Source of the DNA: Patescibacteria group bacterium
GTDB taxonomy: Bacteria; Patescibacteriota; Microgenomatia; UBA8517
Direction of reading: 5' to 3'
NCBI GenBank assembly: GCA_041742135.1
Contig: JBGSJG010000004.1
Coordinates: 111,975 to 169,772, forward strand
DNA length: 57,798 nucleotides
The translations under genes were made by a program, and so were the position numbers. The notes beneath the pieces were generated by a model. It saw only the letters and a list, made by a program, of their open reading frames with translations. It made no database searches and was not told the DNA's origin. This document shows positions 22,394 through 57,798 of the stretch, piece after piece. The stretch's first letter is position 1. The number at the start of each line of letters is the position of its first letter.

Positions 22394-22441
22394 AATTGGT
22401 CCCGGGATTGTATAAACTTCGGTTTATACTTCAAATCCACT

Positions 22442-23922
22442 TTTTTGAGGGTTTGATCCTGGCCCAGGGTAAACGCTGGCGGCGTGCTTTAGGCATGCAA
22501 GTAGAACGAGAAATCCCGCTTCGGCGGGATGGAAAGTTGCGAACGGCTGAGTAACACGTAGGCATCTACCTCTAAGTGAGGGATAGTCCACCGAAAGGTG
22601 GGGTAATACCGCATAACACCGAAAGGTCAAAGCGCTTAACTGCGCGCTAAGAGAGGAGCCTGCGCACCATCAGCTTGTTGGTGAGGTAATGGCTTACCAA
22701 GGCTATGACGGTTAGGGGACATGAGAGTGTGTACCCCCAGAGTGGGACTGAGACACGGCCCACACACCTACGGGTGGCAGCAACCGGGAATCGTGCGCAA
22801 TGGACGAAAGTCTGACGCCGCGACGCCGCGTGAAGGATGAAGGCCTTAGGGTTGTAAACTTCTTTTGCCACGTAAGAAACGACGTGGAGAATAAGCACCG
22901 GCTAACTTCGTGCCAGCAGCAGCGGTAATACGAAGGGTGTAAGCGTTGCCCGGATTTATTGGGCGTAAAGTGTTTCGTAGGCGTTTCGGCAAGTTGTTCT
23001 TTAAAGCCCTCGGCTCAACCGAGGAAAGGGGAATGATACTACCGGAATTGAAGAATGTTGGAGTTACTGGAACTATCGGTGTAGGGGTGAAATCCGTTGA
23101 TATCGATAGGAACTCCGAAGGCGAAGGCGAGTAACTAAGCATTTCTTGACGCTGAGGAACGAAAGCTAGGGGAGCGAAAGGGATTAGAGACCCCTGTAGT
23201 CCTAGCCGTAAACTTTGTCCGCTAGCTTGTCCCGATTTATCGGGGCGGGCGTAAGCTAACGCGTGAAGCGGACCGCCTGGGGAGTACGGTCGCAAGACTA
23301 AAACTCAAAGGAATTGACGGGGACCTGCACAACCAGTGGATTATGTGGTTTAATTCGAGACGAACCGAAGAACCTTACCCAGACTTGACATGCTACCGTT
23401 TAGGCACCTGGAAACAGGAGCCGATCTTAATTTATTAGGAAGGTAGCACAGGTGTTGCATGGCCGTCGTCAGCTCGTGCCGTGGGGTGTTCCCTTAAGTG
23501 GGGTAACGAGCGCAACCCCTGTCCTGATTTAAATATTATCAGGAGACTTTTCGATTTTCGTATCGGGAGGAAGCGGGGACGACGTCAGGTCAGCATGGCC
23601 CTTATGTCTGGGGCTACACACATAATACAATGGCATCGACAATGGGTTGCCAAGCCGTAAGGCGGAGCTAATCCCATAAAACGATGTCTCAGTGGGGATT
23701 GAGGGCTGCAATTCGCCCTCATGAACGCGGAATTGGTAGTAATCGGGAGTCAGCTAAATCCCGGTGAATACGTTCTCAGGTCTTGTACACACCGCCCATC
23801 AAGTTAGTAAAGTTGGGGGCACCCGAATGGCCGCTGAGCGGTCAGAAGGTGAAACCAGCGATAAGAATTAAGTTGTAACAAGGTATCCGTTCTGGAAGGA
23901 GCGGATGGATCACCTCCTTTCT
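22442..23922 (+). rRNA. rrs: 16S ribosomal RNA (~1.48 kb, no insertion seen)
   Basis: 5' GAGGGTTTGATCCTGGCCCAG..., an internal GTGCCAGCAGCAGCGGTAATAC, and 3' GGATCACCTCCTTTCT. Ends are approximate. Confidence 0.95.
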
Positions 23923-36323: not shown

Positions 36324-39656
<3,333 letters not shown>

Positions 39657-43567: not shown

Positions 43568-44140
43568 ATGAAAACAACAATCAGTTTACTAACAATATCA
43601 GTAGTAAGTTTACTTTTAAGCGGCAGTGTGTCCGCTCAATCAAGCGGAGGCACTTGGTCTCAGTGTGTTGATGGCCGAGCAATTGCTCGATGCGAAACTT
43701 ACAACTGTCCTCAAGGTGACACCAACGATGATGGTAAATGTACTCTGAGCGATACAAACGCCAGACTCACAGATTCCAGAAATGATTCTTTTTGTGCAAA
43801 CCCAATTTCTGGCTGTGGTCAGGTAATTTACTATCCAAGTGGCTCAAGCGCTTCATGCTTGGAGCGGCCTGAAGAAGCTGGGCTTAACTGTGATTTGTAC
43901 GCGGTCGCAGAGCCGAACTTTACGCCGGGAGCAACATCCACACCAAGAGCGACGGCAAGCGCCACACCTACAGCACGCCCTACAGCAACAGCCTCAGCAA
44001 CTCCAAAGTCTGGAATTGGCGGAGCAGGGGGAGACAACGAGCTACCTAAAACCGGGCCTGAAGATTATCTTCCAGTATTTGCAGTTCTTTCTTTGGGGGC
44101 ACTCGGAATCTTTCTCTACGAAAAATATAAAGTAGTTTAA
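43568..44140 (+). CDS. Secreted Cys-rich protein with an LPXTG cell-wall sorting signal
   Basis: Signal peptide, then C-terminal LPKTG, a hydrophobic helix and a KYK tail. Confidence 0.85.
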   Translation: MKTTISLLTISVVSLLLSGSVSAQSSGGTWSQCVDGRAIARCETYNCPQGDTNDDGKCTLSDTNARLTDSRNDSFCANPISGCGQVIYYPSGSSASCLERPEEAGLNCDLYAVAEPNFTPGATSTPRATASATPTARPTATASATPKSGIGGAGGDNELPKTGPEDYLPVFAVLSLGALGIFLYEKYKVV

Positions 44141-44141
44141 T

Positions 44142-44858
44142 ATGCGGCCTCACGGGACGGTCTATAGATCCACGGCGACAGAGACACACGGTTCACTTCC
44201 GATTGCGCTTACAAAAAAGCAAAAGAAACGATTCAAATTCATAAGCTTTTTGGGGTCAAATTTTTCCAGCCTTGCTTTGGCGTTTGTGGTCTTTTTTTAC
44301 GGCCCACAGTTTGAAATGGATCTAAATTATCAAGCTGGGCTGGCTCATGTAGAGGCGCAGGAAATCGAAGAAAAATTAGCTCAAGCTCCTGAGGTGTTCA
44401 CTGCCAATATTCAAAATGAAAAAAGCGACGAGTTTGCTATTTCAATTCCAGCAATTGGTGCTAGTGCTCAAGTGATTGCCGATGTCGACCCATACTCTGA
44501 AGAAGAATATAAAATTGCCCTTCGAGAAGGGATTGCCCACGCCAAAGGAACAGCGCGCCCCGGGGATGGAGGCCGAGTTTATTTATTTGCCCATTCAACA
44601 AGCTCTCCGACTTATTTTTCAGAATACAACGCTGTTTTTTATCAGCTGCGCTTGCTTTCAGCAGGCGACATGATTTTTGTTAATCACGAAGGCAAGGCGC
44701 ATTTATACAGGGTAACTGAGAAAGTTATTGTCGAAGCTTCTGATACTCACTGGTTAACTGAAACCGCAAGTGAGGAAGAGCTGGTGCTTCAAACCTGTGA
44801 TCCACCAGGAACCATTGACCGCAGACTTCTGGTGATTGCCAGGCCTCTCGAGGTATAA
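44142..44858 (+). CDS. Sortase (transpeptidase)
   Basis: N-terminal TM, LFAHS (catalytic His), LVLQTCDP (Cys), LLVIARP (Arg). Starts 1 nt after its likely substrate gene. Confidence 0.85.
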   Translation: MRPHGTVYRSTATETHGSLPIALTKKQKKRFKFISFLGSNFSSLALAFVVFFYGPQFEMDLNYQAGLAHVEAQEIEEKLAQAPEVFTANIQNEKSDEFAISIPAIGASAQVIADVDPYSEEEYKIALREGIAHAKGTARPGDGGRVYLFAHSTSSPTYFSEYNAVFYQLRLLSAGDMIFVNHEGKAHLYRVTEKVIVEASDTHWLTETASEEELVLQTCDPPGTIDRRLLVIARPLEV

Positions 44859-44867
44859 TGCCGGCAA

Positions 44868-45710
44868 ATGCCGGAGCAAGGCCGCGGCTTAAGTCGCAAG
44901 GATTTTTTAAAAGCATTGGGGCTTGGGAGCATTGCAACTGGGCTGGGACTGATTTTTGAGCATGCGTATAATTATGTCCCGTCGGTATCGGATCGGTATT
45001 TTTCCGCTGACTTGAATGGACTAATAGAAGATCGTGATTTTGTTAAGAACGGTTATGGGCTCGAAATTTACACTTCCGTTCCTCCTCTTGCTCAAAGAGA
45101 GATAACTGGGACAGCGCCTTCGAATCAGGAATTGTCAGTTAGCCTTCGTGAGATTAGGTCCGCTGTGAGTAAGTATCCTTTAAATTATTTTATGAACAAC
45201 GGGATTAGGGGGGTGTCTGTGATGGCGGGGCTTAAAAACGGAGGAGTTGGTTTCGCCGGGATTGCTCTTCGGTCTGGGATTGTCGCTATTAGCCCGATGG
45301 GGCCTCTTGGGAGGCTACACCACGAGTTTTATCATTTAACAGACGAAGGGGGACTGGTGCAAGGCCTTGATTCGTGGTTGAGAAACTCTCGGTGGGAAGG
45401 TATGTTCGGTTGTAAGTGTGAATACGATCAAGATAGGACTGACCTCGGGATTTACGTAACTTCGTTGGGAGCGATTCATCCAAGGGAGGATAGAGCTGAA
45501 ATTGCAAGATTTTTGATGGAACCTGAGTTTCACAGGTCGCTCGTTGATTCTTTGTCAGCTTTAGACTCGCGTGCACAGGAGGAGTTGGTGTTAAAAATTG
45601 CAGAGATAAAAGAGCATTACGCGTTGTGGAGTGATGGAAGAATGGACGAGCAGTATTGGACTGACCTGAGGAATGGTTTGGTGGGTGAGGATTATTGGAA
45701 AGATCGCTAA
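44868..45710 (+). CDS. Putative Tat-exported HExxH protein
   Basis: LSRKDFLKALGLGSIATGL is an RK variant of the twin-arginine motif. HHEFYH contains HExxH. Confidence 0.55.
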   Translation: MPEQGRGLSRKDFLKALGLGSIATGLGLIFEHAYNYVPSVSDRYFSADLNGLIEDRDFVKNGYGLEIYTSVPPLAQREITGTAPSNQELSVSLREIRSAVSKYPLNYFMNNGIRGVSVMAGLKNGGVGFAGIALRSGIVAISPMGPLGRLHHEFYHLTDEGGLVQGLDSWLRNSRWEGMFGCKCEYDQDRTDLGIYVTSLGAIHPREDRAEIARFLMEPEFHRSLVDSLSALDSRAQEELVLKIAEIKEHYALWSDGRMDEQYWTDLRNGLVGEDYWKDR

Positions 45711-47011: not shown

Positions 47012-48160
47012 ATGGACACACTTGGGTACAAACGTATCGCAAGACATCAACACTCTTCCAAGTTACGCAAAAACTTTTTATTACTTTCGAGTGATTTGAA
47101 GCTTTTTAGCCGTGAGCTAATTTCTTTTTTGGCAGGGACTTCTAAAGTTGCGGTGGTGAAATTTGCAACTGGCAAAGACTTCGCTGTAACTTCACTTTAT
47201 ACACAGAGAGGCAAGCTTTCTAAGCGCTTGATGCATTCAGGGATGGCGGGAATTGCGGCTTTTGGTGTGATGGTGGCACCTATTGTGGCGGAGGAATTTC
47301 CAGGCACTGGGCTTGATCCTTGGGAAGCTCCATCTCCATCTCAGGTATTGTCTGCTTCGGATTCCGAGATGACGGAAACGCTGATCGCGGAGCATGATTA
47401 CCGGGACCGAATCATCGATTATGAAGTCCGAGAGGGAGACACCGTTTCTACGATAGCCGAGAAGTTTGGAGTGACGATTGACACCATTCGTTGGCAAAAT
47501 AATCTACTTAGTCGAGATGCGATAAAAATCGGCCAAACTTTGGAAATTCTTCCGCTGTCCGGTGTATCGCATAAAGTGAAAAAAGGTGACACGGTTTATT
47601 CTGTAGCTAAAAAATACGACGTTGATGCCCAGGCTATCGTCAATTACCCCTTTAACGTATTCGTGAATGATGAAACTTTCGAGCTTGCTATTGGCCAAGT
47701 TCTTATTGTCCCCGGCGGAGTTAAGCCTGAGGAAGTTCAGTGGTCGCCAACTGCTCGAGTCCGCCAGACTACACCAGATGCGGGAACTGTAGTTGCTTCT
47801 GGGCAATTTGTCTGGCCGGCACAAGGAAGCATCACTCAATACTTTGCTTGGTACCACAAGGGCTTGGATATCGCCAACCGTGCAGCACCACCAATCTTGG
47901 CTGCGGACTCCGGTACCGTTGTGGTTGCTGGCTGGATGGACAATTATGGTTATGGAAATCGTGTGATTATAGATCACGGAAACGGCACACGAACGCTTTA
48001 TGCTCATATGTCGCGTATTTATGTAAACGTTGGCCAGACTGTTAATCGAGGGGACTCAATTGGCCAAATGGGCTCTACTGGTCGCTCGACAGGAACACAT
48101 CTTCACTTTGAGGTTATCCAGGGTGGATCAAATATCAATCCGCTTTCGGTTCTTCGCTAA
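47012..48160 (+). CDS. LysM-domain M23 peptidoglycan endopeptidase
   Basis: Two LysM repeats (YEVREGDTVSTIAEKFGV, HKVKKGDTVYSVAKKYDV) and the M23 motifs HKGLD and GTHLHFEV. Confidence 0.9.
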   Translation: MDTLGYKRIARHQHSSKLRKNFLLLSSDLKLFSRELISFLAGTSKVAVVKFATGKDFAVTSLYTQRGKLSKRLMHSGMAGIAAFGVMVAPIVAEEFPGTGLDPWEAPSPSQVLSASDSEMTETLIAEHDYRDRIIDYEVREGDTVSTIAEKFGVTIDTIRWQNNLLSRDAIKIGQTLEILPLSGVSHKVKKGDTVYSVAKKYDVDAQAIVNYPFNVFVNDETFELAIGQVLIVPGGVKPEEVQWSPTARVRQTTPDAGTVVASGQFVWPAQGSITQYFAWYHKGLDIANRAAPPILAADSGTVVVAGWMDNYGYGNRVIIDHGNGTRTLYAHMSRIYVNVGQTVNRGDSIGQMGSTGRSTGTHLHFEVIQGGSNINPLSVLR

Positions 48161-48921
48161 GCTATTGCAACCAACTTGCTTCTTCTGTGGTTTGAAATCC
48201 GAGTAAGAATCAGAACTGTCTCAAATAGAACAAGAAGTGGAAGGGCGCAAAGTACGTCAGCGAGAATCGAGTCCATTGGTAATAAAATAACAAAGAAAAA
48301 TGAACCTAGATAAATCCATGCGCGGCTTTTCCGTAACATTTCTTCTTTGATAAGCCCCACCTTTACAAGTAAGTAAAGAACTATTGGGATTTGAAAACTG
48401 ACCCCCATAAAAACGGCTGTAAGAAGTACGGTGTTGAGAAGCTTGCTAACATCTAAAATGTTACCTATCCCCAAAGAGATCGATCTTGCCAAAAATATTT
48501 CTATCTGCCACTTCATTACCCAGCCGCCAAATGCAAAGCCGGCGATAAAAAGCATGATTGAAAAAAGCAGCAAATTTACAAGCGCTTTAAATTCTTTTAT
48601 TTTAAGCGCAGGTCTTAAAAATGACAAAATCTGGGCAATAATTAGCGGAAGAGTAAGGGTAAGCCCGCATGCCACGCCGCAGCCCACTGCAAGATTGATA
48701 AACTGAAAAGGGGAAGTAAAAACAATATTCACTCCTTCAAGACTTAGAGTTTGAATAAGAAACCTAATTATTTGCTCGTAAAACACAAAACCAGAAATTG
48801 ATGCGATAGCAAAAACTAAGAGGGTAAGCAGAATTCTCTTGCGAACTTCAGAGATAAAATGGGTGTATTGATTTACTAACTTCTCCCAATCAGAAGACGT
48901 CAAAGGCTTTATTTGTTCCAC
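48157..48921 (-). CDS. tatC: Twin-arginine translocase subunit TatC
   Basis: HFISEVRKRIL (HLxELRxR-like), six TM helices, FLRPALKIKE loop. Confidence 0.85.
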   Translation of the reverse strand: MEQIKPLTSSDWEKLVNQYTHFISEVRKRILLTLLVFAIASISGFVFYEQIIRFLIQTLSLEGVNIVFTSPFQFINLAVGCGVACGLTLTLPLIIAQILSFLRPALKIKEFKALVNLLLFSIMLFIAGFAFGGWVMKWQIEIFLARSISLGIGNILDVSKLLNTVLLTAVFMGVSFQIPIVLYLLVKVGLIKEEMLRKSRAWIYLGSFFFVILLPMDSILADVLCALPLLVLFETVLILTRISNHRRSKLVAIA

Positions 48922-48948: not shown

Positions 48949-49110
48949 TTAATCTTCCTTGGTCTCGTCCGTGTCTTTGGCTGATTTTTTAAATTCACGA
49001 ACAGCCTCTCCAAGACCTTTAAAGAATTCCGGAATTTTTTTACCACCGAATAAAAGAAGTATTATGAGGCCAACAACTAGAAGTTCAGTTGTTCCGATTG
49101 ATTGCAACAT
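48949..49110 (-). CDS. tatA: Twin-arginine translocase subunit TatA/E (53 aa, below the ORF-track cutoff)
   Basis: My own translation: [53 protein letters not shown]. Confidence 0.8.
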
Positions 49111-49112
49111 GG

Positions 49113-49328
49113 TTAATCAGACGCCTTTTTCTCAGATGTGTCGTCGCTTACAGTTTCTGAAACAGCATCAGTAAATGTCTTTTTAACCTGCTTTATTTCT
49201 TTGAGTGTTTCGCCGCTTGTACGAGCCAAGCGAGTAACAACTTTGCTACCAAAAAACAAAACCAAGATCAAAGCAATAATGATCATCTCGGTCGGACCAA
49301 TATTTTTAATAAAATTAAGTATTTGCAT
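49113..49328 (-). CDS. tatA: Twin-arginine translocase subunit TatA/E, second paralogue
   Basis: [36 protein letters not shown] fits the TatA hinge and amphipathic helix. Confidence 0.75.
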
Positions 49329-49376: not shown

Positions 49377-49577
49377 TTACTCCTCCACCATTTGAGCGCT
49401 AAACCAAGCGGCTCCATCCCAATATTCCAAGCTTTTTGTATCTGAGTTAAAACCAAATCTGCCTCGCTTGGCTGTTTTTGGTCGCTTTGAACTCGTCCAG
49501 GTTTCAATTGCGGGCAAGCCAGCCATTAACGAAAGACCATGCCCAATGTCTACGAGTAACTGATTGTGGTTCGACAT
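49377..49577 (-). CDS. 66-aa protein homologous to the C-terminal module of the giant protein
   Basis: IETWTSSKRPKTAKRGRFGFNSDTKSLEYWDGAAW aligns with [35 protein letters not shown] (about 20 of 38 identical). Confidence 0.65.
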   Translation of the reverse strand: MSNHNQLLVDIGHGLSLMAGLPAIETWTSSKRPKTAKRGRFGFNSDTKSLEYWDGAAWFSAQMVEE

Positions 49578-49596: not shown

Positions 49597-52500
49597 TTAT
49601 ATTCTTTTCATCGGCAGTAAAAGCCAACGCTGCCCGTCCCAATATTCTAGGCTTGTGGTTTCGATGTTGAAGCCAATTACGCCGAGCTTTGGTTTTTTGG
49701 GTCTGCCCGCTGTGTTCCAAGAAGGAATCGTTTGGCGAGTCACAGTCGACAATGCGTTGTAGCTTGGAGTTAAGGACTTAACAATTTGTGGATTTCTATA
49801 AAAAATCACTTTTTTAGTAGGAATCAGTGGCACAGGCAGTACAGGAAGCGCTATCGCTTCTGACGGTGAGGCTGACTTACTTGAACTTGGTGAAGCTGAT
49901 TCGCTTGTGGTTACAGGCGAAGGCGACGCGCTGGCCGTTGGGCTTGGGCTTGCGGACGGAGAAACTGATGGTGATTCACTGCCTGCAGAAGGTGATGCAG
50001 ACGGCGAAACCGAGCCTGATGGGCTTATCGACGCCGACGGGGAGAGCGATGGTGAGCCGGACGCACTTTCGCTTGCCGATGGACTAAGCGATAGGCTTGG
50101 GCTAACGGACTGCGATTCCGACGCACTTGGTGATTGGCTCGCTGATGGGCTAGTGGAAGCCGACGGAGAAACTGATTCGCTGACACTGGCCGTTGGGCTA
50201 ACGGATGCAGAAGGGGACACTGATGCAGAAGGTGAAATCGACAACGATCCTGAAGCACTGGGCGAAATACTGGCAGAGATCGAGGCGCTTGCGCTAGTGC
50301 TTGCCGATGGCGAGATTGATAAAGATGGTGATAGGGACTGACTTTCGCTTGCAGAAGGGCTGATCGACGCGCTAGTGGAAGCACTCGCGCTAACTGATGC
50401 TGACGGCGAAATTGACACACTAGTGGACGAAGACGGACTTGTAGAAGCTGATGGAGATAGTGAGGCAGATATAGACGCGGAAGCCGAAGTGCTTGAGGAT
50501 GGTGAGATTGATGCAGAGATACTGCTAGATGGACTTCTTGAGGCAGATGGTGATACTGATTGACTCCCGGATGCCGAAGGTGAGACTGATGAGCTTGGTG
50601 AGACGGACGCGCTGGTGCTGGCACTTGGGCTTATGGATGAAGATGGAGAAACTGATGCAGAAGTTGATGTGGATGGTGAGACCGATAGTGAAACACTGGC
50701 TGATGGACTAGTTGATGCTGATGGACTTAAGGATGCAGATGTTGATGCCGATGGTGATACTGATGCACTGGTGCTTGCGGATGGGCTTATGGAAGCAGAC
50801 GCACTCGAAGAGGGCGATGCAGAGGCGCTTGGCGAAACTGATGCTGATACGGAAGAAGAGGGACTTGTGCTACTAGACGGCGAGATTGAGGCAGAGGTAG
50901 ATGCGCTAGGACTAATAGATGTTGAGACAGATGCTGATGGACTTATAGACGCACTGACCGAAGCAGAGGGACTAGTGCTCGCGCTTGGCGAGACAGAAGC
51001 GGAGATGCTTGTGGATGGGCTAGTACTTGCGGATGGTGACACAGATGCACTGGTTGACGAAGACGGAGACACGGATGCTGATATTGACGCAGATGGTGAT
51101 AGTGAAGCGGACACCGATGATGACGGGCTAATTGACGCACTTGGGCTTATTGACGCAGATATGCTGGCACTTGGAGAAATCGAGGCGGAGACGGATGAAC
51201 TTGGCGATACAGAGGCCGAAATCGAAGAAGATGGCGAAATAGAAGCTGATGGTGAAATTGAGGCAGAGGTGCTCGCGCTCGGACTGACGGATGCAGAAGG
51301 GGAAACAGATGTTGATACAGAAGAGGAGGGGGAAATTGACGCAGACAAAGATGCTGACGGAGAAATAGATGCAGACAGGGATGCTGAGGGAGACGTGCTG
51401 GCGCTTGGTGATACTGATGCACTGGTGCTCGAAGAAGGACTGACGCTACTAGACGGCGAGATTGAGGCAGAGGTAGATGCGCTAGGACTAATAGAAGCTG
51501 AGGCAGAAGCAGACGGACTTACGGATGCGCTTGTACTTGTGGACGGGCTGATACTTGCGGATGGTGAAATGCTCGCACTAGAAGATGTACTTGGTGAGAC
51601 CGAGGCGCTTGGGCTTATAGATGCTGAAATAGAAGCACTAGGCGAAACAGATGCTGATATTGACGCAGACGGTGAAATAGAAGCAGATGTTGATGCACTG
51701 GGTGATGTACTTGCGCTTGGTGAAACAGATGCACTGATACTCGAAGAAGGACTTGTAGATGATGATGGGCTAATTGACGCGCTTGCCGAAGCAGATGGAG
51801 ATCTGGAAGAAGAAGGTGAAATGGACGCGGAAACGGAGGAAGAAGGGCTGACACTTGCAGACGGAGATATGGAAGCTGAAGTAGATGCACTTGGAGAGAT
51901 TGACGCACTTGGACTTATCGATGCAGAGATACTGGAACTTGGAGAAACCGATGCGGAGACGGATGAACTTGGCGAGATAGAAGCCGAAATAGAAGAAGAC
52001 GGTGAAATAGAAGCTGAAGGGCTAATGGAAGCCGATATCGACGAGCTGGGTGATATCGATGAGCTGGGTGAAACAGATGCGCTAATGGACGAAGAGGGTG
52101 ATACCGATGCTGATACAGACGCAGACGGAGAAACTGACGCACTAATACTAGAAGATGGACTTGTACTCGCAGACGGCGAGATTGAAGCTGATGTTGACGG
52201 TGACGGCGATACTGAGGACGAAGGTGAAATGGACGCAGACACCGACGAGCTAGGTGAGGTACTGGCAGATGGTGAGATAGAAGCCGATATTGATGAACTT
52301 GGTGATATAGATGCACTGACAGACGATGATGGAGACACAGAGGCCGAGGTGCTTGCGCTCGGCGACACCGAGGAGCTGGGCGAAATGGATGCAGAGATAC
52401 TGGAACTTGGAGAAACAGACGCGCTTGGACTAATGGAGGCTGACACAGATGAAGAAGGCGAAACAGAGGCCGACATTGAAGAGCTTGGTGAAATTGAGGC

Positions 52501-55500
52501 GGATGCAGAAGATGACGGTGAAACAGATGCCGATGGGCTTATGGAAGCCGATATTGACGAGCTAGGGCTTATTGACGCAGACGGACTTATGGATGCAGAG
52601 CTAGACGAGGATGGGGAAATTGACGCAGACGGACTGATGGAAGCCGAGATCGAGGCTGAAGGTGAAGTGGAGGCTGATGGTGATATGGATGTGGACACGG
52701 ATGATGAAGGCGAAGTGCTGGCAGATGGAGAAGTAGATGCACTGATACTGGAAGAAGGACTGATGCTGGCAGAAGGCGAGATGGATGCACTTACTGATGC
52801 AGACGGTGATACAGATGCTGATAGCGAGCTTGACGGGCTAATGGAAGCCGAAACTGAGGAGCTCGGTGAAATGCTTGATGAGGGCGACACCGACGCGCTG
52901 ATTGATGAGGAAGGAGAAATCGAAGCGGATATAGAACTGGACGGACTCACAGATGCGGATACAGATGCAGATGGACTAACAGAGGCCGATGGAGATATGG
53001 ATGCTGACACAGAACTAGACGGTGAAGTGCTTGCACTTGGGGACACGGATGCTGAATGCGACGCAGAAGGAGAAATGGATGCGGATATAGATGAAGATGG
53101 ACTTATTGACGCAGATATTGACGACGATGGGCTGATAGATGCACTAGGTGATATTGACGCAGACACCGACGAGCTGGGAGAAACCGATGCCGATGGACTA
53201 GTAGATGCGGAAGCGGATGAACTCGGTGAAATACTGGCAGATGGAGAAACTGACGCACTGGCTGATGCACTGGGTGAAATCGAGGCAGATGGTGAGATCG
53301 AAGCCGATATTGATGAACTTGGGGAGACAGATGCACTTACAGACGACGATGGGGACACGGATGCCGACGCAGAAGCTGAAGGACTGATACTAGAAGAGGG
53401 TGAAATTGAAGCGGAGATGCTTGCGCTAGGCGAGACAGACGCGCTCGGGCTTATGGATGCCGATATTGATGAGCTGGGCGACACGGAAGATGAAGGCGAG
53501 ATTGACGCAGACAATGACGAGCTGGGTGAAGTACTGGCGGAGGGTGAGACCGAGGCTGAAATACTTGCTGAAGGGCTGATGCTGGCTGACGGCGAGACCG
53601 ACGCACTAATTGATGAGGAAGGAGAAATGGATGCGGATATAGAACTGGACGGACTTATAGAGGCGGATAAAGATGACGATGGGCTGATAGATGCGCTGGG
53701 TGAAATTGATGCGGATACAGAGCTGGATGGTGAAGTACTGGCGCTTGGGGATACCGAAGCTGAATGTGAAGCAGAAGGTGACACTGATGCGGATACAGAT
53801 GAAGATGGGCTTATTGATGCAGATATTGACGACGATGGGCTAGTGGATGCACTGGGCGAGATTGATGCAGATACGGAAGCTGATGGGGATACTGATGAAG
53901 ATGGCGACACCGAGGCAGAAGCGCTAGCAGAAGGGCTGGTTGACGCAGACGGACTAATAGAAGCTGAGATCGAGGCTGAAGGTGAAGTAGATGCTGATGG
54001 AGAAACAGATGCAGAAACTGACGAAGACGGTGACGTACTGGCGGATGGTGACACAGATGCCGATATTGATGAACTTGGGGAGACAGATGCGCTAACTGAT
54101 GCACTTGGAGACACAGAAGCAGAAATACTCGCACTTGGCGAGATTGAGGAGGAGGGTGAAATTGATGCTGAAACTGACGAACTCGGAGAAACCGATGCTG
54201 ATGGGCTTATAGAAGATGAAATACTGGAACTTGGTGACGTGGATGCACTAGGAGATATAGAGGCAGAAATTGATGAAGATGGTGACGTACTGGCAGAAGG
54301 CGATATTGATGAAGAAGCACTCGCTGAAGGGCTGATACTGGAGGATGGTGATACAGATGCGCTATTGGACGCAGAAGGTGAAACAGAGGCTGATATTGAA
54401 GAGCTTGGTGAAATTGATGCCGATATTGACGAGCTAGGGCTTATTGAGGATGACGGTGACACAGATGCAGACACAGATGATGATGGTGATGTACTAGAAC
54501 TTGGCGAGACTGAGGCTGATATTGAGGAGGACGGTGAAATTGAGGCCGACGGGCTAATAGATGCAGATGCTGAAGAGCTAGGTGAAATGCTGGCTGAAGG
54601 GCTTATTGATGCACTGATGGATGCGGAAGGAGAAACGGAAGCCGACGCTGATGCCGACGGAGATATGGATGCTGAAACACTGGCCGAAGGTGATATGGAT
54701 GCAGACGGGCTGACAGAGGCTGACACTGATGTGCTTGGGCTTATGGAAGCACTCGGACTAATGGATGCTGATGCCGAGGCTGAAGGTGAAACAGAGGCTG
54801 ATGGACTTATCGAAGCGCTCGGACTGATTGACGCCGATATTGATGAACTAGGTGAAACAGATGAACTTGGAGATACAGATGCAGAGACAGATGAAGAAGG
54901 CGAGATACTAGCGCTTGGACTTATGGATGCAGAGCTAGAGGCTGATGGTGATACTGACGCCGACGGGCTAATGGAAGCCGAAACTGAGGAGCTCGGTGAA
55001 ATGCTTGATGAGGGCGACACCGAAGCGCTGATTGACGCAGAAGGACTGATGCTGGAAGAAGGCGACACTGAAGCGGAAGTACTTGCACTCGGTGAAATTG
55101 ACGAGCTTGGTGAAACCGATGCTGAGATACTCGACGAAGGACTTACTGATGCAGACGGCGAAATTGATGCAGACACGGACGCAGACGGAGAAACGGAAGC
55201 TGATGGTGAAATTGATGCAGAAACCGACGAACTTGGCGAAATACTGGCTGATGGTGATACGGATGCTGAGATGGATGCGGACGGACTAAGTGAGGCGGAC
55301 GGTGATACACTGGCGCTTACAGAAGCAGATGGTGAAATTGAAGCACTTGGTGAAATAGAAGCGCTAACTGATGTTGACGGACTGACCGAAGCTGATGGAG
55401 AAATTGATGCACTGACAGAGGCCGAAGGACTGACAGAAGGGCTTCCTGCCGGAGCGGCTTTGACAATAAAAGAAAGCATGCCTCCTTTTTCGAAAGTTGT

Positions 55501-56334
55501 GTTGTTATAAACATCTGATATGGTTACAGATGTCGATGTAGATGAGGCTCTGGACATCACAAACATCGCTGATCCGCCGGAAAGCCCGTCATCATAGACT
55601 TCAGTCCAGCCGGAATCATATGTGGGATTAGCCGGGGCATCATATGCGGCGTATGGCACAGCCGAGAGGGTAATATCATCTGCTGTGGGGGTTGCAGCTA
55701 GTGTCTGGGATTGCCCCCCGTCACCAATATCTGTCGAGTCGGTTGTTGCAAAACCAGCTATGGGAGTAGTTGTGTCGTAGCCAGTGAAAGCAACTACATA
55801 GACAACCCAATTAAACATCGCCCCCATTGCGGGAGCTACAGTTATTGCCATTGATGAAGGAGAGCCGCCCACCTCAGCAGTAAAAACATTTCCTCGTACG
55901 GCCCACGATGATTCTTCTCTTGCCTGGCCCTCGAACGTATAGCTTAGCCCACCCCCTGAAATAGAGGGCTGCCCAAGGTCGCCTAAAGTCATCCACATGT
56001 TGGTCACAAAAACCACCAAGAGTGAGTTGGCAGGAGGAGTGAAAGAACCTGTTGAATAGTCTCCTGTTCCGTAACTAGAAGCAGAAACCCAAGAACCTAT
56101 ATCTGTACGGTCTAGGCCTGCCGCTGGTGACGGAGAGACGGATGAGCTGGGGGAGACCGATGCCGAAGCTGAAGCCGAAGGGCTTATCGACGCCGACAAC
56201 GATGCAGACGGAGAGATGGATGCACTTTCTGAAGCAGATGGTGAAACTGAAGCGGAATCAGAAGAACCACCACCAGAAAGCGCTATGTCAAACGCATTAG
56301 CGCCGTTATCGCGAAGTGTTATGTCAAATGCCAT
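49597..56334 (-). CDS. Giant (2,245 aa) serine-rich repeat surface/fibre-like protein
   Basis: Uninterrupted ORF. It has a ~230-aa unique domain, ~1,860 aa of SAS[VI]-SPS[AS]S[VIT]-SPS[AS]S[VIT] units, and an 86-aa unique C-terminus. Flanking genes are on the same strand. Confidence 0.8.
49858..55443 (-). repeat. Coding tandem repeat, 48-nt (16-aa) period, ~5.6 kb
   Basis: The period is seen in the translation. Units are strongly diversified at synonymous sites, with all six Ser codons used. A short extra block lies at 56125-56259. Confidence 0.85.
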
Positions 56335-56408: not shown

Positions 56409-57512
56409 CTAGGAGGCAGTACTGTTATCGCTTCTTCCTACGTGAGTTCCGTTTTCGTAAACCTCGCCATACATGTTAATTGTATTGTCATACCAAGTAA
56501 GCGTATATGCTCCACCAGAAGTTGTAGTTGCGTTTCCGACGAATTCACCAGTGTCAGCGCGGTGAATTCCAACAGTCAACCCCGCTCCGTCTGCATCGAC
56601 GTAGCCTGAAACTGTGCCAGCAATCGTATAGGTGTGAGAATGGTAAGTTATCCAAAGTCCCAAACCGTATTGTTTGCTTGTACCAACTATTCGCCACTGG
56701 CGTGAACCCTCGATGTCCATTCGAGAAGTATCGGTGTCATTGGGCCATCGCTTGAAAGCGAAGCGACAGACACCGTTGTTAATCCACGAACCGTTCTCAC
56801 CAACGCCGGTGTAGAGTGAAGAAAATAACGTTTCCCAGCCACCAGCAGGTGATTCCGAACCAAGTCGTTCAGTAGATAATACTCGCCCGTCAAGGGTCAC
56901 TCCAATCCCACGGCAATAAATAATCGGAACAACTGACATCAGCCAATAATTGGTTTCCAATATTTTCGGGTCGACCGTCGCCGCTGCCTGAACAATCGTA
57001 CCAGTCGCACGATTATTGGCAAAAATCGGGAAATAAGTAGAACGAGCGTGAACCCCGTCGCCGCCACTTGCCTTGCTGCTGGTGTAATTCAAGAGCATCA
57101 TACACGACATGTTGCCAATATTATTATTTGAACCCGCATACCACTCCGCCGTAAAAGTGTTTTCACCCCGAGTGAGTGATAGGGCCGCTCCCCGATTACT
57201 ACCAGAATCAATACGGTGAACGATAGAAGTCATTCCTGCCGTCTGTCCGTCAGCGGTTGGTGTGTATCCAGTAGCGGTTTGACTACCAGCCTTATACGTT
57301 AAAGTAGTAGAAGTGCCAGTAGAATTAAAAGTTATCCAAATTCCCGACTGCACCATCGTCAGGGTTCCTGGCTCTTGCAAACTGCGAGTAACGCTGGCCA
57401 TTGATTTATCACCAGATGTCAAAACATTATCTGAATCTTCCCCAATGCCCATCATCAAACTATTCAATATAGTCGTACTGGAGGAATGGTCGTACTCATA
57501 GGTTACGGTCAA
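56409..57512 (-). CDS. Hypothetical beta-rich protein upstream of the giant gene
   Basis: 367-aa ORF rich in G/T/S/N with no motif I recognise. TTG start directly after the upstream TGA. Confidence 0.55.
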   Translation of the reverse strand: MTVTYEYDHSSSTTILNSLMMGIGEDSDNVLTSGDKSMASVTRSLQEPGTLTMVQSGIWITFNSTGTSTTLTYKAGSQTATGYTPTADGQTAGMTSIVHRIDSGSNRGAALSLTRGENTFTAEWYAGSNNNIGNMSCMMLLNYTSSKASGGDGVHARSTYFPIFANNRATGTIVQAAATVDPKILETNYWLMSVVPIIYCRGIGVTLDGRVLSTERLGSESPAGGWETLFSSLYTGVGENGSWINNGVCRFAFKRWPNDTDTSRMDIEGSRQWRIVGTSKQYGLGLWITYHSHTYTIAGTVSGYVDADGAGLTVGIHRADTGEFVGNATTTSGGAYTLTWYDNTINMYGEVYENGTHVGRSDNSTAS

Positions 57513-57798
57513 TCAGCCGCCCAGAAACCCAATCATCGTTGTACCGGTCGTGACGGCATTTAATGATTTAGCGGCTGTGAAAGTCTCCGCCGTAATATCC
57601 CACATCACCCGAAAACCAGCATTGGAATCTTGGGTATTATCAATCGTGTTATAGGCATAAGTACTTCCCGCCGAATCAAGTTTCAGGGTCAAAGTTCCGT
57701 CGGTGGTAGAGTTAGGCATTGTACTTCCCCATAATTCGAGAAACGCCTGCCGAATTGTAACGGAAGCCTCGGGCAAAAATGGAGTTGTGGCGTGAGTC
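57513..57798 (-). CDS. Hypothetical protein, C-terminal part (the frame stays open to the right edge)
   Basis: No in-frame stop between 57776 and the window end, so the true start is probably outside the window. Confidence 0.45.
   Translation of the reverse strand, partial: THATTPFLPEASVTIRQAFLELWGSTMPNSTTDGTLTLKLDSAGSTYAYNTIDNTQDSNAGFRVMWDITAETFTAAKSLNAVTTGTTMIGFLGG

Follow-up and report, generated by a model that had tools for sequence, protein, structure and literature searches.

Gene organization and genomic context

The DNA analysed here, a stretch of 57,798 nucleotides that we refer to as the window, contains a minus-strand open reading frame (49597..56334) that runs without interruption from an ATG start to a TAA stop and encodes a serine-rich modular fibre protein of 2,245 amino acids, here called the giant. 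These boundaries match the ORF listing exactly, as an earlier sequence-only reading of this DNA had reported. Serine makes up 48% of the product (S 1077, A 302, P 253, I 166, V 144, T 93). The division into four parts proposed in that reading also holds: a short Ser-X linker at aa 25-70, a unique domain at aa 71-297, a Ser-rich array at aa 298-2159 and a unique tail at aa 2160-2245. The linker (56125..56262, minus strand) comprises 23 Ser-X dipeptides.

The window contains 16S, 23S and 5S rRNA genes together with housekeeping genes. Its Rho protein shares 88% identity with Rho from the MAG Woesebacteria RIFCSPLOWO2_01_FULL_44_24b, and we therefore assign the DNA to a Woesebacteria (CPR) chromosome, which bears out the CPR host that had been supposed. 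Within the 10 kb downstream of the giant are two tatA genes, tatC, an M23/LysM peptidase gene, rho, a sortase gene accompanied by a gene for its own LPKTG substrate, radA, a pseudopilin gene and the gene for S1. No portal, terminase, capsid or tail gene was found in the window's 49 kb downstream of the giant.

The Ser-X array

The largest part of the protein (aa 298-2047; 50194..55443, minus strand) consists of 875 consecutive Ser-X dipeptides, or 1,750 residues, in which the register is never broken; it is the putative stalk or spacer and the candidate region for O-glycosylation. Proline delimits 220 units, among them 123 decapeptides of the form S-P-S-[SA]-S-[IVT]-S-A-S-[IV] and 86 hexapeptides of the form S-P-S-[AS]-S-[IVT]. 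Decapeptides and hexapeptides mostly alternate, with additional decapeptides interspersed, and this explains the 16-residue period described earlier; the ~116 periods of 16 aa likewise agree with the previous count of units on the order of a hundred. The reported degeneration toward the C-terminus corresponds to aa 2048-2159 (49858..50193, minus strand), where the array loses its register and acquires E, Q, G and L substitutions.

All six Ser codons are used at every Ser position but one, in proportions that roughly equal the window background, and where units have an amino acid in common their codons agree as often as chance predicts, whatever the lag (at lag 16, 0.231 vs 0.222), in keeping with the heavy synonymous divergence noted earlier. 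Tandem repeat detection with TRF recovered short, weak pieces only, and array copies are mostly 60-65% identical in DNA, with a few segments of 100-300 nt at 74-86%. More than 330 TCA or TCG codons lie one mutation away from a stop, yet all 2,245 codons are stop-free. The array is therefore old and kept by selection, as had been argued, since its synonymous sites are saturated and no stop has entered. Ser-X runs are also retained in the giants of all relatives (126-685 dipeptides), where the alternation is kept and the identity of the X residue differs.

Repeats are a known cause of misassembly, and an opposite-strand ORF of 1,631 aa (50615..55510, plus strand) overlies the array, so we considered an artefact in which the repeat was collapsed or expanded or the wrong strand was annotated. 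The plus-strand frame is a mirror image of the array; the domains that bear homologues are in frame on the minus strand. Units that share just ~60-65% of their DNA, with no exact repeat longer than 62 nt, in-frame unique domains with homologues at both ends, and orthologues of 1,087-2,323 aa at the same locus in independent assemblies of related genomes together make an artefact exceedingly improbable, and we rejected this explanation.

The array might instead form a compact and regular beta-structure of the silk-like or beta-solenoid kind, a rigid rod of ~50 nm in place of a flexible stalk, in which the Pro/Ala/Val/Ile side would be the core and the Ser side a hydroxyl-rich surface. Such a fold would suit either origin of the gene discussed below and is consistent with the strict two-residue register across 1,750 residues, the aliphatic residue at the end of each unit, the regular spacing of Pro and the alternation preserved in all relatives despite variation in X. 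It is at odds, however, with the frequency of Pro and with the variable order of the units, in which runs of alternating decapeptides and hexapeptides are broken by three decapeptides in succession and turns would be of unequal length; we consider both the rod and its proposed packing improbable. We favour an extended stalk or tether, which at full extension might reach up to ~0.5 um and whose serines would be O-glycosylated by glycosyltransferases like those beside related giants. Among the loci fetched for comparison (L numbers), a ~590-aa GT2, other glycosyltransferases, methyltransferases and sugar-nucleotide enzymes are encoded adjacent to giants in L009, L192, L201, L102/L196 and L006; in L102, L192, L196, L201 and L009 the sequence before the giant contains genes for glycosylation and sugar nucleotides; and a poly-Ser fibre of the same layout occurs with glycosyl- and methyltransferase genes in the IMG/VR contig L006/L107. 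From these neighbouring genes, the Ser-X region is probably O-glycosylated.

Partner gene and phage-type modules

Directly upstream of the giant lies a partner gene (56409..57797, minus strand) for a protein of ~640 aa. This gene runs off the window, which includes its last ~460 codons. The giant, whose start is at 56334, directly follows the partner's end at 56409 on the same strand. The partner product comprises three beta-sandwich domains and a prealbumin-like domain; Foldseek against the PDB returned low-TM, generic multi-sandwich matches, among them reelin, GFLV capsid, single-chain TNF trimers and lambda gpJ. An in-frame TGA interrupts the partner at 57513-57515, at a position where homologues have Trp, and an in-frame stop is also present in one close relative. 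In the window TGA serves as a genuine though infrequent stop, terminating 3 of 37 long ORFs, and an alternative genetic code was rejected for this reason; we read the codon as a mutation or sequencing error and not as recoding.

The first 19 residues of the giant (56278..56334, minus strand) form a two-strand motif that fits the pattern M-x-[FH]-D-[ILV]-x-L-[RV]-[DN]-x-G-x(1-3)-[FL]-[DN]-[IV]-x-[LIF] and is also encoded in the gene following a partner-family gene in phage and MAG contigs. Examples of the motif after partner-family genes are provided by L007 (MAFDLTLRGPSGFDVQL), L006 (MAHDIVLRDNGSGALDISF) and L009 (MSFDITLVNNGASGFDINI), as well as by L013 and L018, and further comparisons were made with L111 (MAFDISLRDNGSGSFDISL) and L126 (MAFDVILRDNGTPSFDIAL). 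The order partner followed by giant or fibre gene recurs in L006, L007/L008, L009, L013, L018 and L188 and in about half of 69 IMG/VR loci; 19 of the IMG/VR loci pass the strict motif pattern and ~32 of the 69 match by eye. Phage structural genes accompany some of these pairs, the L018 contig carrying an SPP1-type portal and L188 a terminase-portal arrangement and a tape measure gene. Given the conserved adjacency of the two genes, the motif may dock the giant onto its ~640-aa multi-sandwich partner.

The domain at aa 71-297 (55444..56124, minus strand) is an all-beta sandwich, as judged from its AF2 model (pLDDT 94), its homologues and its BFVD matches. Structure searches with this model, which the sequence-only reading had proposed for the unique domain, gave BFVD matches at TM 0.6-0.78 (best E=7e-14) that include actinophage minor tail proteins, and no significant match in the PDB, where Foldseek detected only a weak jelly-roll likeness (TM 0.27). 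None of its 42 homologues has a Pfam domain. Searches of aa 1-304 against Pfam and PHROGs yielded nothing beyond a sub-threshold STIV penton match, and tblastn of aa 71-297 against 50,697 GenBank phages gave no match. The family also exists as stand-alone proteins of ~240 aa in phage structural modules and at one prophage edge. L190, the closest relative, encodes an orthologue that combines the same N-domain with a LamG-like insert, and also a second giant in tandem. With hhalign, the family showed no significant similarity to the two globular domains present in the L102 giant, so that homology of the heads across lineages is not demonstrable. On the basis of its fold, the domain could be a binding head like that of phage minor tail proteins, with its ligand on another cell.

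The C-terminus of the giant shares a W..RP..P..G..GFN..T..LE.WDG..W motif with tail fibres and minor tail proteins, having been found in minor tail proteins of Streptomyces phages and in structural proteins of cyanophages. Against PHROGs the tail matched only entries of unassigned function, and the C-terminal module had no sequence match in the PDB.

Every recognisable module of the giant, and the partner, is best documented in phage genomes, and this brings forward the main rival explanation, in which the giant is a fibre on the tail or head of a temperate phage, integrated whole or as a remnant beside the Woesebacteria tat operon, with virion assembly in the cytoplasm and release by lysis. 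The Ser-X stalk would then be a glycosylated spacer bearing the receptor-binding head. Support comes from the many IMG/VR and phage-like contigs, such as L018 and L188, in which a partner-family gene precedes a fibre gene with the N-terminal motif, from stand-alone homologues of the N-domain within phage structural modules and at the edge of a prophage, and from the likeness of the N-domain fold to phage proteins including actinophage minor tail proteins. The C-terminal motif of Streptomyces-phage and cyanophage proteins, the L006/L107 fibre with its glycosyl- and methyltransferase genes, and the partner stops here and in the close relative, as in a decaying prophage, point in the same direction. 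The giant also has no signal peptide, and a phage protein needs none. Finally, the window covers 1.4 kb upstream of the giant, which leaves room for a prophage on that side, and tail-fibre-like genes stand just upstream of the giants in L102 and L196. We regard a phage fibre as possible but on balance doubtful in view of the conservation of the locus described below.

A conserved chromosomal block with tat genes

All giants encoded at the corresponding locus of related genomes terminate, like this one, in a conserved C-terminal module of 66-68 residues (here aa 2178-2245; 49600..49803, minus strand). Four smaller genes follow the giant on the same strand. The first, mini (49377..49577), starts 19 nt past the giant's stop and encodes a free-standing protein of 66 aa, paralogous to the entire C-terminal module, with no Pfam match. 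It is succeeded by a tatA/B-like gene of 71 aa (49113..49328; PF02416, E=4.8e-9), a tatA gene of 53 aa (48949..49110; PF02416, E=1.1e-15) and tatC (48157..48921; PF00902, E=1.3e-37), which synteny identifies as the last gene of the block. No terminator-like site was found between the giant and tatC, and the genes are thus arranged as in an operon. The mini paralogue, the tat operon, the N-terminal docking motif and the neighbouring glycosyl- and methyltransferase genes had not figured in the sequence-only reading.

The block giant, mini, tatA, tatA, tatC occurs in the same orientation in no fewer than 12 Patescibacteria genomes, drawn from several CPR lineages. A Ser-rich giant with the same C-terminal module, followed by mini, tatA and tatC, is found in L100, L101, L102, L189, L190, L191 (a single-cell genome), L192, L195, L196 (Daviesbacteria), L197 and L201 (WWE3), the order giant, mini, tatA, tatC being kept in L192. 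A scripted search recovered mini and tatC from ten further loci, and in nine of the ten a giant ends 13-121 nt before mini. The C-terminal tails of the giant and its L102 counterpart are 48% identical (E=2e-22). Pairwise identity of mini correlates with that of TatC (r=0.91, 55 pairs), as does that of the giant C-tail (r=0.74, 45 pairs), where the pairs are non-independent and three of the loci are nearly identical. On both sides of the block the flanking genes differ between lineages, and some genomes carry two or more giants in tandem. Full-length mini homologues in Patescibacteria genomes are 50-60% identical over residues 1-63, whereas viral contigs yielded no full-length homologue, the best reaching 56% over core residues 25-58 and 35% where residues 6-65 were covered. 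The block has been inherited vertically in Microgenomates, WWE3 and relatives.

These results stand against a phage fibre. At least 12 CPR genomes share this block in one orientation, with the giant directly next to mini, tatA and tatC and with sequences that co-diverge with TatC, which would not be expected of independent prophages. Tandem giants, and full-length mini homologues that turned up in Patescibacteria genomes and in no viral contig, also speak against this origin. In L102, L192, L196, L201 and L009 no phage hallmark gene (portal, terminase, capsid or integrase) was found in the sequence preceding the giants, which extends to at most 10 kb. Because the block is conserved and co-diverges in these genomes, we favour a resident cellular gene, and because it is vertically inherited the fibre is most likely a cell-surface appendage and not a recent phage acquisition. 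The sequence-only reading had left the choice between a host-attachment fibre and a phage or tailocin fibre, and each has gained support, the phage side from the modules and the partner and the cell side from the conserved block that co-diverges with TatC. Our preferred interpretation, in which we place about even confidence, is that the giant is a chromosomally fixed and very long modular fibre built from phage-fibre modules, most likely a surface appendage of an episymbiotic cell. In this appendage the C-terminal 66-aa module and mini may form a base that assembles or anchors the fibre.

Export signals and serine-rich repeat proteins

The N-terminus of the giant has no signal peptide, the highest Kyte-Doolittle 19-residue mean being 0.6 with no hydrophobic core, and the ORF can be extended upstream by at most three codons. 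RR occurs nowhere in the protein, which excludes a twin-arginine motif, and no LPxT[GAN], LAxTG or NPxTN was found; the C-terminus reads ...WLLLPMKRI*, with no transmembrane segment detected. The earlier impression that the giant has no obvious Sec or Tat signal and no LPXTG is thereby substantiated, and inspection by eye of N-terminal stretches of its relatives shows no such signal or transmembrane segment either. A surface location would thus require export by a route that is not evident.

The resemblance to Gram-positive serine-rich repeat proteins (SRRPs) that had been remarked upon stands for the Ser-X repeat and fails for export and anchoring. Membership of this adhesin group (GspB, Fap1, SraP or PsrP type), with cytoplasmic glycosylation, export by an accessory SecA2/SecY2 system and sortase attachment to the wall, was considered against the established defining features of the group, in part as given in PMC2952246. 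The giant shares with SRRPs a long Ser-X dipeptide repeat and the order short repeat, globular region, long repeat, its Ser-X regions flanking the putative binding region (23 dipeptides, the domain at aa 71-297, 875 dipeptides). In addition, a sortase gene lies 5 kb away and glycosyltransferase genes occur near related giants; the latter suggests cytoplasmic O-glycosylation and the need for a special export route. It differs in having Pro in every unit, once per 6 or 10 residues, in a CPR host, and in having phage-fibre modules at both termini and as its globular domain in place of SRRP binding regions. It has neither a KxYKxGKxW-type signal, nor any other N-terminal signal peptide, nor LPXTG or a transmembrane tail, and gene calls over the 10 kb downstream include no secA2, secY2, asp or gtfA/B, the sequence upstream running off the window. 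With signal peptide, LPXTG and aSec locus all absent from the visible part of the genome, SRRP membership is very unlikely and was rejected.

A more speculative proposal, which we think has a small chance of being correct, is that the C-terminal 66-aa module and mini act as a sorting or assembly tag that couples a signal-less, cytoplasmically glycosylated fibre to a dedicated TatA/TatC translocase encoded downstream. Such a system would be a CPR counterpart of the SRRP accessory Sec, derived from phage tail-fibre parts and making the host-attachment filaments of ultra-small episymbionts. As in substrate-linked minimal Tat operons (phoD-tatAd-tatCd of B. subtilis), a candidate cargo gene here stands just upstream of tatA-tatC on the same strand, and the Tat-dependent fimbriae ('tafi') reported from Haloarcula (PMC11821415) are a precedent for a Tat-dependent surface filament. 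The present locus differs from both in that neither the giant nor mini, which starts MSNHNQLLVDIGHGLSLMAGLP, has a twin-arginine signal, and the putative link to Tat is one of synteny. Elsewhere in the window, the product of 44868-45710 starts MPEQGRGLSRKDFLKALGLGSIATGLGL and looks like a canonical Tat substrate, so Tat has other clients.

Relation to phage fibres and significance

To our knowledge, host attachment and recognition in CPR/Patescibacteria are largely unknown outside type IV pili. A full-text literature search for serine-rich, giant or surface proteins in CPR found no paper describing such a protein. The giant locus, present in Woesebacteria, Daviesbacteria, WWE3 and relatives, offers a concrete and conserved candidate for host attachment, with a fibre of possibly half a micrometre and swappable lectin-like heads. 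It also presents a puzzle in secretion, as a protein of 2,245 aa with no known export signal is fixed beside a tat operon. The sharing of fibre modules between phages and a chromosomal gene of their likely hosts is relevant both to receptor mimicry and to how parts of phages become domesticated.

Phage tail fibres and minor tail proteins, including Streptomyces phage Andris gp24, actinophage minor tail proteins and the fibres that follow the partner family in IMG/VR, have the same modular layout as the giant: they combine a short, conserved motif for attachment at the N-terminus with repeats that act as spacers, interchangeable heads of beta-sandwich or LamG-like type and the terminal motif given above. 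The fold of aa 71-297 and the position of the partner directly upstream are also held in common. The giant differs in that it belongs to a chromosomal block with mini, tatA and tatC conserved across CPR lineages, that no phage hallmark gene was seen next to it, and that the tail-fibre motif stands at its extreme C-terminus and is duplicated as a 66-aa gene. We know of no characterised tail fibre with a spacer that is not far shorter than 875 Ser-X dipeptides, and among the fetched loci only the giant's own relatives, with their 126-685 dipeptides, come near this number. In the 735-kb phage LR756501, giant collagen-like (G-T-S)n fibre proteins of 1,312 and 2,816 aa, which are of low complexity and rich in Ser/Thr, adjoin tandem partner-family paralogues; these differ from the giant in their Gly-X-Y rather than Ser-X repeat, in the absence of the N-terminal motif and in their context within a huge phage genome.

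Architecture of the giant protein and its serine array

The giant serine-rich protein is encoded on the minus strand (49597..56334) by a listed ORF of 2,245 codons with an ATG start and a TAA stop; serine makes up 1,077 of its residues (48%), and S, A, P, I, V and T together account for 2,035. The four-part layout first read from the sequence (aa 26-70, 71-297, 298-2159 and 2160-2245) is correct. Within the third part, aa 298-2047 form 875 consecutive Ser-X dipeptides, where X is A, P, I, V, S or T, with zero breaks in register. Proline delimits 220 units in this array, including 123 decapeptides of the form S-P-S-[SA]-S-[IVT]-S-A-S-[IV] and 86 hexapeptides of the form S-P-S-[AS]-S-[IVT]. These two types mostly alternate and thereby generate the 16-residue period noted earlier, with extra decapeptides scattered through the array and adjacent hexapeptide pairs almost never seen. 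The 1,631-aa ORF on the plus strand (50615-55510), rich in D, E, G, A and L, is a mirror artefact of the serine array that gene callers may pick up. At the related locus L006, a gene is called on the wrong strand across a poly-Ser fibre.

Age and selective maintenance of the array

The sequence-only reading considered the array to be old and selectively maintained, and codon comparisons bear this out. Where two units agree in an amino acid, codon matches between them do not exceed the chance level at any of the lags covered (2-800 residues), so that the heavy synonymous divergence between units, already remarked on, amounts to saturation. More than 330 TCA or TCG codons in the giant's frame are each one mutation from a stop, and the frame contains neither a stop nor an odd-length indel. 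Saturated synonymous sites combined with an intact frame indicate long-lasting purifying selection on the array. The reported use of all six Ser codons, in approximately the background proportions of the window, holds for Ser positions with the exception of decapeptide position 8, where AGY codons are nearly absent (2 of 120, as against about a quarter of Ser codons elsewhere in 50194-55443). DNA identity between array copies is mostly 60-65%, with a few segments of 100-300 nt at 74-86%; no exact repeat exceeds 62 nt, and TRF recovered fragments only. Assembly collapse of the array was also considered and is argued against by the divergent copies and the intact frame.

Phage-fibre modules in the non-repeat regions

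The non-repeat parts of the giant are phage-fibre modules. The globular domain (aa 71-297) has 42 homologues. Pfam recognises a domain in none of them, and most are stand-alone proteins of ~240 aa that begin where the giant's domain begins. Such homologues lie in a structural module resembling that of podoviruses (portal, GP7 capsid, Bbp16/19), on a contig with a terminase and at a prophage edge. The AlphaFold model of the domain is an all-beta sandwich (pLDDT 94). The structure search proposed in the earlier reading returned no significant match in the PDB for this model, and the strong matches were to predicted phage proteins, namely one from Sinorhizobium phage phiN3 (E=7e-14, TM 0.78, rmsd 2.8 A) and minor tail proteins of Mycobacterium and Gordonia phages (TM 0.6-0.73).

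Directly upstream of the giant on the minus strand lies a partner gene (56409..57797, continuing past the window end) that belongs to a ~640-aa family of >166 members. A close homologue is modelled as an all-beta protein with three sandwich domains and a prealbumin-like C-terminal domain (pLDDT 88); the PDB matches of this model are generic only. Members of the family were found on 79 IMG/VR contigs. The family is also represented beside an SPP1-type portal gene in contig L018 and between portal and tail genes in the siphovirus-like contig L188. The 735-kb phage LR756501 (L004, LR756501.1, 256-18222) has two tandem partner paralogues, of 656 and 687 aa, which adjoin giants with a collagen-like (G-T-S)n repeat that are 1,312 and 2,816 aa long.

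At about half of the partner loci, the next gene opens with the N-terminal motif found in the first 19 residues of the giant (MAFDLTLRGPSGFDVQL, MAHDIVLRDNGSGALDISF, MSFDITLVNNGASGFDINI and MAFDISLRDNGSGSFDISL are among the examples compared). The products of these genes are repeat-rich, range from 63 to 2,106 aa and often end in a W.G..W motif. Two of them are Ser-rich with the same layout as the giant: the L006 fibre has poly-Ser and a LamG-like head, and the L009 fibre, encoded in a Patescibacteria MAG, shares the giant's repeat (a 13-residue stretch) but has a different head. The partner itself carries an in-frame TGA at 57513-57515 (minus strand) where homologues have Trp (GFLGG*LTVTYEYD vs GGWINVTYEF); otherwise TGA does serve as a true stop codon in the window, though rarely (3 of 37 long ORFs). 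In L019, the relative that shares 66% identity with the partner is interrupted by a TAA in frame at a different site (position 565-567). Judged from these reading frames, the partner looks to be decaying while the giant remains intact.

The giant ends in the motif W..RP..P..G..GFN..T..LEYWDG..W, which also occurs in minor tail and tail-fibre proteins of Streptomyces phages, in cyanophage structural proteins and in PHROG 1325. Its entire last 66 residues have a stand-alone paralogue, mini, an unannotated 66-aa gene (49377-49577, minus strand) that starts 19 nt beyond the giant's stop. Mini matched nothing in Pfam. Searched against 1.84 billion representative proteins, it gave 288 relatives, many of which carry a ~40-residue core in tandem; in some, this array adjoins a T7 tail-fibre N-terminal domain or a pectate-lyase-like helix. 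A good Pfam model for this core appears to be absent. Among the large relatives P0166, P0167, P0169 and P0170, the core reaches 11 copies in 933 aa and 13 copies in 4,979 aa; another protein has a signal peptide and four copies followed by a pectate-lyase-like domain. A prophage virion fibre would account for the modules, for the partner gene and for the giant's lack of an export signal; we hold it to be the less likely of the two main readings.

A conserved chromosomal block with mini and the tat genes

After mini come two tatA/B genes and then tatC. These genes share one strand and are spaced 2-48 nt apart, and the run from the giant to tatC contains no terminator-like site. The order of one or more giants with the C-terminal module, mini, tatA and tatC recurs in related loci, including L100-L102; L103, of the same group, starts at tatA-tatC and its upstream side is missing. 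Two named Woesebacteria MAGs, including that of the closest relative, also have the block, as do one MAG each of Daviesbacteria and WWE3, a single-cell genome and others; the genes flanking the block on either side vary between lineages. The giants of related blocks measure 1,087-2,323 aa with unbroken Ser-X runs of 126-685 dipeptides, and differ in their X residues and globular heads. The closest relative has an orthologue with the same N-domain and a LamG-like insert, followed by a second giant.

Mini corresponds to a 64-68-aa gene before tatA/tatC in many Patescibacteria genomes; its full-length relatives are in such genomes, and viral contigs gave weaker or partial matches only. Pairwise identity of TatC correlates with that of mini (r=0.91 over 55 pairs, which are not independent) and with that of the giant tails (r=0.74 over 45 pairs, likewise not independent). 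These correlations fit joint vertical descent of mini, the giant tails and TatC. We therefore favor, with about even confidence, the reading of the giant as a surface fibre with a chromosomally fixed gene, put together from phage-fibre modules and probably glycosylated. A cellular fibre explains the retention of the block in many lineages, its co-divergence with TatC and the tandem giants, as well as the glycosylation islands upstream, where phage hallmark genes would be.

Glycosylation and export

No glycosyltransferase gene was found near the giant in the window, which is cut on the upstream side. A ~590-aa GT2 enzyme is encoded beside related giants in L009, L192 and L201 (WWE3). Giants in L009, L192, L102/L196 (L196 being Daviesbacteria) and L006 are accompanied by additional glycosyltransferases, by SAM methyltransferases and by sugar-nucleotide enzymes. 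At the level of gene neighbourhood only, these enzymes support putative O-glycosylation of the giant's serines. The Ser-X repeat is of the type found in the serine-rich repeat glycoprotein adhesins of Gram-positive bacteria, but membership of the giant in that family fails on three defining features. Both kinds of part that make up the giant, phage fibre modules and an adhesin-type Ser-X repeat, are known; literature searches found no description of an 875-dipeptide stalk with a duplicated C-terminal module and a conserved tat-operon link in CPR bacteria.

The giant has no signal peptide, as first read, and the reported absence of Sec, Tat and sortase signals stands for the giant itself, which lacks an RR motif and LPXTG; nor was a transmembrane segment found in it. 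No export signal is apparent in the printed N-terminal stretches of its relatives. The giant's fixed place before tatA-tatC is reminiscent of substrate-linked Tat operons, the connection to Tat being one of position alone. At 43568-44858, this CPR genome has a sortase-substrate pair of the classical type. The substrate, 190 aa long, has a Sec signal peptide and a linker rich in Thr, Ala and Pro, and also carries LPKTG, a transmembrane segment and a KYKVV tail; the sortase gene comes directly after it. The adjacent gene (44868-45710), 3.2 kb from the tat operon, encodes a 280-aa protein that starts MPEQGRGLSRKDFLKALGLGSIATGLGL and has a Tat-type signal (SRKDFLKALG...) with RK replacing RR; by this signal its product is likely an ordinary Tat client. 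The presence of canonical Sec/LPKTG and Tat-like signals nearby implies that the organism uses them.

Host assignment

The host had been taken to be a CPR cell, and this is upheld by Rho: the protein shares 88% identity with its counterpart in Candidatus Woesebacteria RIFCSPLOWO2_01_FULL_44_24b, the next best matches all being Woesebacteria or Microgenomates. The window carries housekeeping genes including tRNAs, rho, radA, S1 and tatC, together with 16S, 23S and 5S rRNA genes, the 23S gene containing a group I intron (38431-38685). Many TPA_asm MAG contigs, including L024, L026, L027 and L100-L103, are labelled 'uncultured Gammaproteobacteria', 'Pseudomonadales' or 'Oligoflexia' and bear a Woesebacteria-like Rho and TatC with the Ser-rich locus; from this gene content, their taxonomic labels look wrong. 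The 16S (22441-23920) and 23S (36327-39655) genes of the window are separated by 12 kb containing protein-coding ORFs, tRNA-Ile and tRNA-Ala.
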